From Lingula anatina (taxonomy: Eukaryota; Animalia; Brachiopoda): 64,000 nucleotides of DNA. The translations under genes were made by a program, and so were the position numbers. A model generated the notes under the pieces. That model did not search any database, was not told the origin of the DNA, and saw only the letters and a program-made list of their open reading frames with translations. Each line of letters opens with the position of its first letter. The stretch's first letter is position 1. Where the stretch lies: NCBI GenBank assembly GCA_051362555.1, contig CM120642.1, positions 25,792,001 to 25,856,000 of the forward strand, written 5' to 3'. This document shows positions 18,901 to 21,900 of this stretch, piece after piece.

Positions 18901-21900
18901 AGCAGCTGCAAATTCAGGAAACACCTGCCAAAACAAACATACAGCATGCACCCTTACTATACACTGTGTTATCTACTACTGGGCTTGGGAGATTTCTTTA
19001 TCACCAAGTCTCTCCTCGTCAGCATTCAGATAGGGAAATATCCTAGTAGCTCCTCTGGCTCTATAGCAGGGTCACATGAAAAGCTGCAGGGAAGTTCTGA
19101 TCATTTCCTATCATCCCACCCCCAGAGACCCAGGCCTTTCTCAGCCACCACTGTCCAACACTACCACATGGAATACAGCCACAGGAAAGTGTACGAAACT
19201 TAACTGATCTTACTAAAGCACTGAAGCATGGCCAGTTGTTTCACTCCAGTAGTGGTGCACAGTGGTACTATGGGGACCCAGCTTGCAGGGAGCTCTACCA
19301 GCAGAAATATCCCACGAGAATAGTGTGCAATACTTCTGCCTTTCTCCCTGTCACGCTGGGTTTACTACCCTGGGACATCAATGGCCAAATGACCAGCCAT
19401 CACTACCTGATAGCCTCCTTGTAGTGCATAAGGGCCTCGTGGAGCTTGCCTTGTTGTTGTAAAACACTGGCCAAATTGGAGTGAGCTACTGCAAATTCAG
19501 GGTACACCTGAAACACGCAGGAGCAGGGGGAAAACATTCAGAGGTTGTTCAAGGTAAACAACATGTCCTGAAATCAAGTCATCTCATCTCACAAGCAAGA
19601 AGAAAAAAGTATCTTTCTTTTTAATTGTAAAATCAGAGAGACAGTTCAAGTAAAGGGAAGTTCAGTTATGGTCCAACTATACCTGTTCCACCAAATGATA
19701 TCCAAAGGGTCCTGAAACTTTTCTACAAAAAGTGCACACGCAAAGATTGCCTTTAGTTTTCAATCTTTCTGTAGAATAATTGTTTTGGAAAATAATTTCA
19801 ATGTCACTTTATTCATCTATCAAAATTCAGATTTTCTATCTACAAACAAGGACCAATGTTTAAAATGGCAAATCCATCTGGAATCATACCTCCAAAGCCT
19901 TCAGGTAGAGCCTGACAGCTTCTTCAGTGTGTCCTTGCTCTCTTTTTATATTGGCTAGATTGTTTAATGAATCTGCATGGGTTGGACACAACTTCAGGGC
20001 AGTGTTGTAGCATTTCTCTGCTTCAGCAACCTGAAAAATGTTTATCATTAGTTTGCCTTCTTTGCAAAGAAATTTGCAAAACAAATAAATCCCAAGTTTA
20101 TCCACTTAATACATAGCTTACATTTTTGACAAACAAAGGCTTTGTTTTTTAACATCACCAAGATGTTAAGTGACATTACCAAAAACAAATATTATAATTT
20201 TTTTCCATGGGGTTTATGTTATATTACCTGCACTTTCTCTTTCAAAGCATTAGCCAAATTGCAGTATGCATCAGGGAAGTTTGGCTGCAGCTCAATTGCT
20301 CTTCTATATGTGTCAATAGCCAAGTCTATCAATCTTGAAAAAGAAACATCATGGCCTTGATTAAAACAAACTTAGCTCTAAGAATTAATCATACACTAAT
20401 TTTATCTGACTGCATGTTATTTCTTTAGACAAATTTTTGCAATAACATACTTTCTTTCAACATTTTAATCAAGTTCAAATCACCATTTACAAAACAGGAA
20501 CAGTTCTGCGCTTAGTTTTGACTTACCCCTGTTCATAGTAAACACAAGCCAAGTTCCCATGAACTATAGCATGGTTTGGACTTAGACTAAGGGCTCGCAG
20601 ATAAGCTGCAACAGCTCTGCAAAAGAGTGACACATTGCATCACATTCTGCATGTTAAATAAAGCAACCTCATGGGATTTAGAGGTTAAGTAGTAAATATA
20701 CAATTCTTAATAAAAGAGATTTCACAATTCTATGTATGCATCCAACCAACCTGAAAGTCGAGACCTAAATGCTATATATGAATGTTACAGCAATTTCTAT
20801 ATAGTCCACCTACCTGTCAAAGATCCTAGCTTCTTTTAAGACATTGCCTAAATTGATATACGCATCTAAGAAACTTGGGTCTAGAGCCACTGCCTAAATT
20901 GAAACAAAAAAAAAAATTATTTTTTAAAACATGTTTATAGTAGAAGCGCAAACATTACTATTTTAACATTAAAATGCTATTTTTCTTTTTAACATATTCA
21001 AATATGATGTCCTTTTGGTAACCAAGCCACAAAAACTATACTTACTTTTTCAAAGTGATGAATTGCCAGCCATATTTCTCCTTGTGCGTTAAACACACAT
21101 CCCAGATTACTCCAAGCTACAGCAAAGTTGGGTTGAGTCTCTATGGCTTTTAGATAACATGCCTGGTGTGGGTGGGTCCATATCCCAAAGGTTGGCACAG
21201 GGGGGTTCAGGTTACAACCATTCAGTTGGATCCAGTGTGGAGTGGAGGAAGTGAGAGGAGGTAGAAGTGACAGAGGGACAGACAGACAAAGAGAGAAAAA
21301 AGAAAAAAGAGAAAAAGAAGTATATTAGACATGGTAAAATTGCCAGTTTGTGACAGCGTCTGCGTGGTTGAGAGCGTACGCATGCGCGGGACGCAGCGCG
21401 GACTTGTATGTGAGACCAAAACAAACCATGCTCAGACGGTTAACTATTTCTAATACATACAATGAACTGATAATCAACAACAGCTACAATCTGTGAGACT
21501 TAGGTTTATTGTGCTCTCAACAGTCAATAATGCAGCAGTGTGGCAACCTCCCTCCCAACGCTGGTAGCAGCTCGCAGCGCACCACGCTCTTTGCAGAAAG
21601 GCAAAAATCCTGAATTCAAATCTTTTTTTCTTCAAACTTCATAAACATTTACTGATAAATACCATTTTGAGCCAGTCTCCCACTTATGCAATTTTATCCA
21701 AAAACATGTTGAATAATTTGGTTTTTCCCAAAAATAGATTTCAAATAAGAGAAATGTCCCAAACGGAGTGTTTTATGGTGCCAAACCTGTGTGAATTTCT
21801 GTCGAAACTTTGCGAGATATTTCTGCAGTGTTCACTTGGGTCGACTGACTGATAGTTCAAACCATAGGCATCTTGCATGTTAGGGCTACAAACCCCAATT

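Follow-up and report, generated by a model that had tools for sequence, protein, structure and literature searches.

The question raised by this locus is how the O-GlcNAc transferase (OGT) gene of Lingula anatina chooses between two duplicated exons, and whether the intron that separates them acts as an RNA switch enforcing mutual exclusion, as had been proposed in a preliminary description of the sequence. In the window, i.e. the whole 64-kb stretch of DNA that was analysed, the OGT gene was located on the minus strand from about 24700 to 13000 by six-frame translation and tblastn. A catalytic-region exon shares an identity of 99% with XP_013387388.1 of Lingula anatina, and human OGT structures match the Lingula protein over its full length. 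The region around the exon pair comprises the following features:

19890..20030, minus strand, constitutive OGT exon 9, upstream of the pair (junction reads, tblastn)
19407..19507, minus strand, alternative exon 10a, 101 nt, minor form, donor CAG/GTAGTG, Y/V/V at the diagnostic sites
18925..19406, minus strand, intron separating 10a and 10b, 482 nt, GT..AG, G+C 0.48
18824..18924, minus strand, alternative exon 10b, 101 nt, major form, donor CAG/GTATCC, F/A/I at the diagnostic sites
17310..17463, minus strand, constitutive OGT exon 11, downstream of the pair (junction reads)

Exons 10a and 10b agree at 80/101 bases and 28/33 residues, are both flanked by AG..GT, lie next to each other, match in length and phase and each have their own splice sites; the acceptor of exon 11 is common to both. 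The inclusion of both exons or of neither results in a frameshift and an early stop, the length of 101 nt not being divisible by three. The RefSeq protein XP_013387388.1, the one Lingula protein in the collection searched, contains the 10b form only and is missing 10a. The exon pair is real and absent from the Lingula protein record, and the premise of mutually exclusive duplicated exons is borne out by RNA junction reads.

The raw reads of eight RNA runs (X1-X5 and X7-X9; X6 was left out) were sampled to 6-30% each and yielded in total 46 reads joining exon 9 to 10a, 201 joining exon 9 to 10b, 33 joining 10a to exon 11 and 116 joining 10b to exon 11. The junction reads are distributed over the runs as follows:

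X1: 11 (9>10a), 18 (9>10b), 4 (10a>11), 16 (10b>11)
X2: 7 (9>10a), 22 (9>10b), 7 (10a>11), 16 (10b>11)
X3: 12 (9>10a), 29 (9>10b), 3 (10a>11), 10 (10b>11)
X4: 8 (9>10a), 26 (9>10b), 6 (10a>11), 17 (10b>11)
X5: 5 (9>10a), 23 (9>10b), 8 (10a>11), 4 (10b>11)
X7: 2 (9>10a), 32 (9>10b), 1 (10a>11), 23 (10b>11)
X8: 0 (9>10a), 20 (9>10b), 1 (10a>11), 16 (10b>11)
X9: 1 (9>10a), 31 (9>10b), 3 (10a>11), 14 (10b>11)

Joints including both exons or skipping both were listed from a threshold of at least 3 reads. At this threshold double inclusion (10a>10b) was listed in X1 only of the eight runs, with 4 reads that make up 4/8 of the junction reads leaving the 10a donor in this run; it had 0 reads in three other runs and was not among the joints of at least 3 reads in the remaining four. 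A joint skipping both exons was not among the listed junctions (at least 3 reads) in any of the eight runs. Furthermore, the bins of three neighbouring constitutive introns had a depth of 0 in 4/4 runs, and the introns flanking the pair carry reads. Based on the junction counts and these intron reads, exon exclusion holds in mature RNA, with a slight leak, and splicing at the pair is slow or incomplete.

The ratio of 10a to 10b varies between the groups of runs: the share of 10a amounts to 44/155 in P1 and 27/97 in P2 (both 28%) and to 8/144 in P3 (5.6%; Fisher p 1e-7), the P3 contrast being confounded with tissue, stage and population. The P3 runs (X7, X8 and X9) combine their far lower 10a use with many differences from the window in exons and introns, and apparently derive from a divergent population or a related species. 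Among the variants listed for four runs, one is located in 10a or 10b (18895, 4/36 reads, X4) compared to 20 sites in five neighbouring exons.

A pattern search with the genomic 10a-type exon retrieved six metagenome loci (L001-L006). L001-L004 represent one taxon, being 94-98% alike, and L005 is its distant sister (tree support 99/96); the tree did not group L003 and L005 with Lingula and gave no phylum placement. Both L001-L004 and L005 possess two 101-nt exons in the same order as in Lingula, with an intervening intron of 496-506 nt in L001-L004 and of 320 nt in L005. In all three lineages the first copy carries Tyr, Val and Val at the diagnostic sites and the second copy Phe, Ala and Ile or Met. 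Across the lineages the a-copies share 30-32/33 residues and the b-copies 28-29, compared to 25-28 between the a- and b-copy within one genome. Among L001-L004 0/202 columns of 10a and 10b vary, versus 3/255 downstream. In L006 exon 9 is fused to a 10a-type exon, with no second exon copy in the 539 nt downstream, and no match to a pattern was obtained in prokaryote genomes or viral contigs. Since two distant animal lineages possess the same pair, down to the diagnostic residues, the duplication is probably ancient, one old duplication being likely the simplest reading.

Among the fetched OGT proteins with the motif, Phe/Ala/Val was the commonest state (160 proteins, mainly of deuterostomes and arthropods), and Tyr/Val/Val was present in 94 proteins of molluscs, Owenia and several others. 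Among the OGT proteins fetched from vertebrates, arthropods and molluscs, each gene model has a single form. None of the fetched mollusc isoforms with the motif is of the 10b type, where the gene models may miss one form as that of Lingula misses 10a, and no pair of fetched proteins differs in this exon alone. The OGT isoforms P0274 and P0344 of Owenia fusiformis are of equal length and differ only at residues 154, 159 and 160, as would fit a further pair of mutually exclusive exons, here encoding N-terminal TPRs; a second copy of this Owenia-type N-terminal exon was not detected in Lingula.

The preliminary description had given the length of the intervening intron correctly as 482 nt (19406-18925, GT..AG) and had characterised it as richer in G+C than its neighbours and self-complementary. 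Its G+C content of 0.48 indeed exceeds the 0.22-0.38 of the other 19 of 20 approximate OGT introns. With a minimum free energy of -168.8 kcal/mol (z -2.12, 1/100 shuffles) the whole intron folds modestly better than shuffled controls; however, the untranscribed strand performs equally (z -2.04, 4/100 shuffles). Along the OGT gene 4/25 of the 482-nt tiles (25 of 31 tiles) are at z <= -1.98. Helices were scored with at most two interruptions, and an unbounded duplex score, which ran long on random sequence, was set aside. The best intron helix with 0, 1 or 2 interruptions was equalled by 101, 34 and 9 of 120 shuffles, respectively. No helix of the Lingula intron is exceptional taken singly, and its self-complementarity, with all of the stems present, exceeds chance only in part.

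No Rfam model matched the intron at E <= 1, and no second copy of 18925-19406 was found within the 64-kb window. T>C changes on the plus strand, the A-to-I sign for an RNA of the minus strand, were absent from the listed intron variants at a depth of 0-7. Two further ideas were abandoned: a lower polymorphism of the intron compared to its neighbours was dropped, the variants being known in part and at a depth of 0-7, and an inverted exon copy inside the intron was rejected, its antisense alignments ranking at 85 and 156 of 200 shuffles.

The three stems named previously, (i), (ii) and (iii), were all found in the sequence, including the G-U pair on the minus strand, along with a second hairpin, H2, which had been overlooked:

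19276..19361, minus strand, hairpin H1, which is stem (i), predicted p 0.86-1.0
19147..19266, minus strand, hairpin H2, predicted
18962..18982, minus strand, 3' arm of stem (ii), alternative partner of 19246-19264, predicted p about 0
19029..19112, minus strand, stem (iii), present in the sequence, predicted p 0-0.15

H1 begins 46 nt past the 10a donor, and the 3' arm of stem (ii) ends 37 nt ahead of the 10b acceptor. The dominant predicted partner of 19246-19266 is that within H2 (p 0.998 for the intron alone, 0.54-0.86 with the exons). Stem (ii) is disfavoured because its 5' arm is occupied by H2; forcing it costs +7.2 kcal/mol, and H2 would form before stem (ii) during transcription. Of the nested stems, stem (i) is predicted to form, whereas stems (ii) and (iii) are not part of the predicted ensemble. 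In an 864-nt fold including the exons approximately 38% of the ensemble opens H2, the arms of which then pair with 10a and 10b, and with longer flanks H2 is back to p 0.86.

At least five natural intron variants were found among the listed read differences. The variant 19259 A>T (X3, 4/4 reads) disrupts a base pair of H2 as well as one of stem (ii), and X3 shows an ordinary share of 10a and no listed double inclusion. A one-base insertion after 18964 (X9, 4/4 reads) bulges stem (ii), and the variants at 19006, 19018 and 19176 fall neither within the three named stems nor within the outer helix of H2. With a predicted p of about 0 and two natural variants in it, stem (ii) seems unlikely to serve as the bridge from the 10a donor to the 10b acceptor that the switch model had assigned to it. 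Close proximity of the 10a donor to the 10b acceptor should, if anything, promote the inclusion of both exons.

As an alternative mode of action docking-selector elements had been suggested, together with 8-nt matches of the intron to both exons. These matches are present, but the complementarity ranges from chance to borderline. The two 8-mers matched to 10a are in non-collinear order and are therefore unable to form one helix with this exon. Short intron-exon pairings are at chance (58, 10 and 34 of 100 for 10a; 48, 44 and 39 of 60 for 10b), and long imperfect duplexes are borderline (3/60 shuffles for 10a, 4/60 for 10b). For 18482-18511, a candidate partner after 10b, the pairing does not exceed chance (37/40 shuffles), and the same holds, in Lingula and L003, for pairings that span 10a or 10b and would loop out or mask one exon. 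The segment 19246-19266 has several partners, among which H2 is ahead by 7.2 kcal/mol and none is clearly better than shuffles. The search in Lingula revealed no docking site for which competing selectors are significant, and the intron-exon pairing was not reproduced in L003 or L005. In L005, exon 10a contains an internal 15-bp hairpin, and a G-rich element 38-71 nt after 10b can pair with the 3' end of 10a (-35.6 kcal/mol) or with the 10b acceptor region; this element scored 0/100 with 10a and 0/40 with the intron, is of low complexity and is absent from the other lineages.

The intervening introns of the three lineages share no sequence (best 6/200 in 9 comparisons), and among L001-L004 the intron is conserved no more than its neighbours (28/495 variable columns versus 24/395 and 52/841). 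A perfect 16-bp stem is present once in the L001-type intron and once in that of L005 (0/120 shuffles in both L001 and L005; 2/200 in L003 and 0/200 in L005 in a further shuffle test); in L002 one pair of its stem is lost through a change. The stems of L001 and L005 have a common 6-base core, which also occurs in 213/5000 random 16-mer pairs. Seven segments remote from the pair all stayed short of z -3 (best 2/100), and among four flanking introns one attained it, the upstream intron of L004 (0/60). The whole-intron z is -2.39 in L003 and -0.19 in L005. Based on the stem tests and the unalignable introns, strong stems cluster around the pair in three lineages, at no one homologous place. Considering the outlying G+C content and the stems in both orthologous introns, a role for intron structure is plausible; the specific switch model is not supported.

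The intron after 10b contains two further stems:

18147..18407, minus strand, perfect 19-bp stem (18389-18407 with 18147-18165), tile z -5.1
17530..17825, minus strand, 16-bp stem (17810-17825 with 17530-17545), tile z -5.8

Both are stronger than every helix of the intron between 10a and 10b, belong to the 8/132 tiles across the window at z <= -3 and have no further copies within the 64-kb window. They would shorten the span of the post-10b intron (17464-18823, minus strand) by about 550 nt.

The longest OGT intron measured (21163-23662, minus strand, 2500 nt) follows the exon ending in ...LGRLDEAK and harbours a long hairpin in 21817-22298 (z -5.25) as well as a second well-folding tile at 22781-23262 (z -2.62); no duplicated exon was found in it. 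Its position is presumably that of the mammalian detained intron 4. Elsewhere in the window, several short exons with repeated motifs (…KNPLPD…) were observed on the plus strand at about 42500-50400; we take these motifs to be beta-thymosin-like, apparently of a multi-repeat thymosin gene. A tandem array with a unit of about 146 nt is visible as repeated reading frames at about 8150-10150.

The mechanisms described for exon exclusion include a short intron, spliceosome incompatibility, decay and competing structure (PMC6071210; PMC7797038). For the Lingula pair we give roughly even chances to the explanation that local hairpins tune the choice, and that splice-site competition and frameshift decay enforce exclusivity. 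The G+C-rich intron would fold into the two predicted local hairpins, H1 directly past the 10a donor and H2, the arms of which may alternatively pair with both exons or with the region ahead of the 10b acceptor. Since intron reads in poly(A) RNA are confined to the surroundings of the pair, these folds may slow or bias splicing there and would thereby tune the exon ratio. Competition between splice sites together with frameshift-triggered decay would maintain exclusivity among the mature mRNAs, and the rare transcripts containing 10a as well as 10b would presumably be removed by nonsense-mediated decay. As a switch the intron hairpins are unproven, and a milder structural role may remain to them.

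It is less probable, if conceivable, that the structure is incidental, the exon being chosen by splice-site strength and by RNA-binding proteins on G+C-rich elements, and frameshifts being cleared by decay alone. The chance level of the Lingula helices, the equal z on both strands and the lack of excess intron conservation among L001-L004 are consistent with this explanation, as are the exon length of 101 nt, which is not a multiple of three, and the joining of 4/8 reads from the 10a donor to 10b in X1. The perfect 16-bp stems in both orthologous introns, set against 7 control segments of which none is at z -3, and the listing of double inclusion in 1/8 runs only argue against it. A competing-pairing switch seems quite unlikely. 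In such a switch the docking site 19246-19266 would either be held in H2, leaving 10b free, or pair with 18962-18982 near the 10b branch zone, with the exons or with the site after 10b, so that 10b would be blocked and 10a used. The same arm does have at least two partners, approximately 38% of the 864-nt ensemble has H2 open, with its arms engaged by 10a and 10b, and the long duplexes to both exons are borderline (3/60, 4/60). In addition, the P3 runs use 10a five times less, and the X9 insertion would weaken stem (ii). However, the P3 contrast is confounded, and stem (ii) has a p of about 0 at a cost of +7.2 kcal/mol. The alternative state masks both exons together and fades with more flank (H2 p 0.86), the pairing with 18482-18511 is at chance (37/40), and the exon pairing was reproduced in neither L003 nor L005.

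We consider it highly improbable that the exclusion is hard-wired, be it by a distant branch point near the 10a donor (as in OGDH 4a/4b) or by U2/U12 incompatibility. The 10b donors of the window, L001 and L005 (GTATCCGT, GTATGCTT and GTAACCTT, respectively) are each one base off the U12 donor consensus, yet the downstream acceptor is shared and the 10a donor is not U12-like. A distant branch point is difficult to reconcile with the 44 AGs of the Lingula intron, the last of them 30 nt before the acceptor, which leave no long AG-free zone; these zones are also short in L001 (-88) and L005 (-19). The existence of 10a>10b junction reads speaks against hard-wired exclusion of either kind.

The human ATE1 exons 7a/7b (R1R3/R3R4), as described in PMC7797038, resemble the Lingula pair in that two homologous exclusive exons are combined with an intron element that may have several partners, and in that the leak consists in double inclusion. 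According to the same source the ATE1 elements are conserved and have been tested by compensatory mutation, R1 and R4 overlapping splice sites. In contrast, neither a conserved element nor a significant competing pair was found for the Lingula OGT intron, and its stems are predicted. Like the Lingula gene, Dscam1, 14-3-3zeta, Mhc, MRP1 and srp combine tandemly duplicated exons with stems in the introns beside them; in these systems, as reported in PMC6071210, PMC4691838 and PMC12962786, the docking site is located outside the cluster and the pairing loops out an exon, whereas the best-supported Lingula stems are local hairpins within the intervening intron. The pair furthermore resembles the tandem duplicated exon substitution events of PMC9741552, in which equal-length homologous exons, often ancient, swap a short region of a conserved protein; the main text of that article contains 0 mentions of OGT. 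In mammals the same gene is regulated by splicing via the detained intron 4 with a decoy exon, the unproductive forms being part of O-GlcNAc feedback as described in PMC12061472. Unlike this intron retention, which turns OGT off, the Lingula event is located elsewhere in the gene and swaps a TPR segment. In the literature, subscription journals and supplements aside, no report of an OGT exon pair was found, and predicted-pair tables for invertebrates could list it; RNA-structure-steered exon pairs were not found there for molluscs or annelids either.

On the protein level the exon corresponds to residues 343-375 of the Lingula protein, which cover the final part of one TPR and the larger part of the one that follows; these were assigned as TPRs 10 and 11 by counting back from the catalytic domain over 13.5 repeats. 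The 10a and 10b isoforms differ in 5/33 residues, located in the final part of TPR 10 and within TPR 11. Both retain the ladder Asn at repeat position 6 and differ by an Ala/Val swap at repeat position 2, where 5/6 of the other repeats shown have an Asp; we infer that position 2 is in the register of the aspartate ladder. The ladder aspartates have been described to contact substrate side chains and to matter most in TPRs 9-13, and these active-site-proximal repeats, with their Asn and Asp ladders, to weigh most in substrate selection (bioRxiv 10.1101/2020.12.22.423982; PMC11145291). The pair swaps part of the predicted substrate-binding groove of OGT, and the two isoforms may differ in substrate preference.

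A more far-reaching joint reading, which we regard as speculative and rather improbable, would place the duplication in an ancestor of brachiopods and other spiralians. It would have given rise to two switchable substrate grooves of OGT, which is elsewhere one fixed enzyme. The grooves would have been retained for more than 500 million years, controlled by intron hairpins conserved in shape and not in sequence. Molluscs would have kept only the derived 10a, and the switch may represent an arm of O-GlcNAc feedback in invertebrates.

Thousands of proteins are modified by OGT alone, a single enzyme of extreme conservation, and its substrate selection is an open question. Natural switchable TPR 10/11 segments in distant lineages would offer a ready-made test of the groove residues that set specificity. 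In addition, the Lingula pair is a candidate from beyond arthropods and vertebrates for the short list of exon pairs that are possibly steered by RNA structure.
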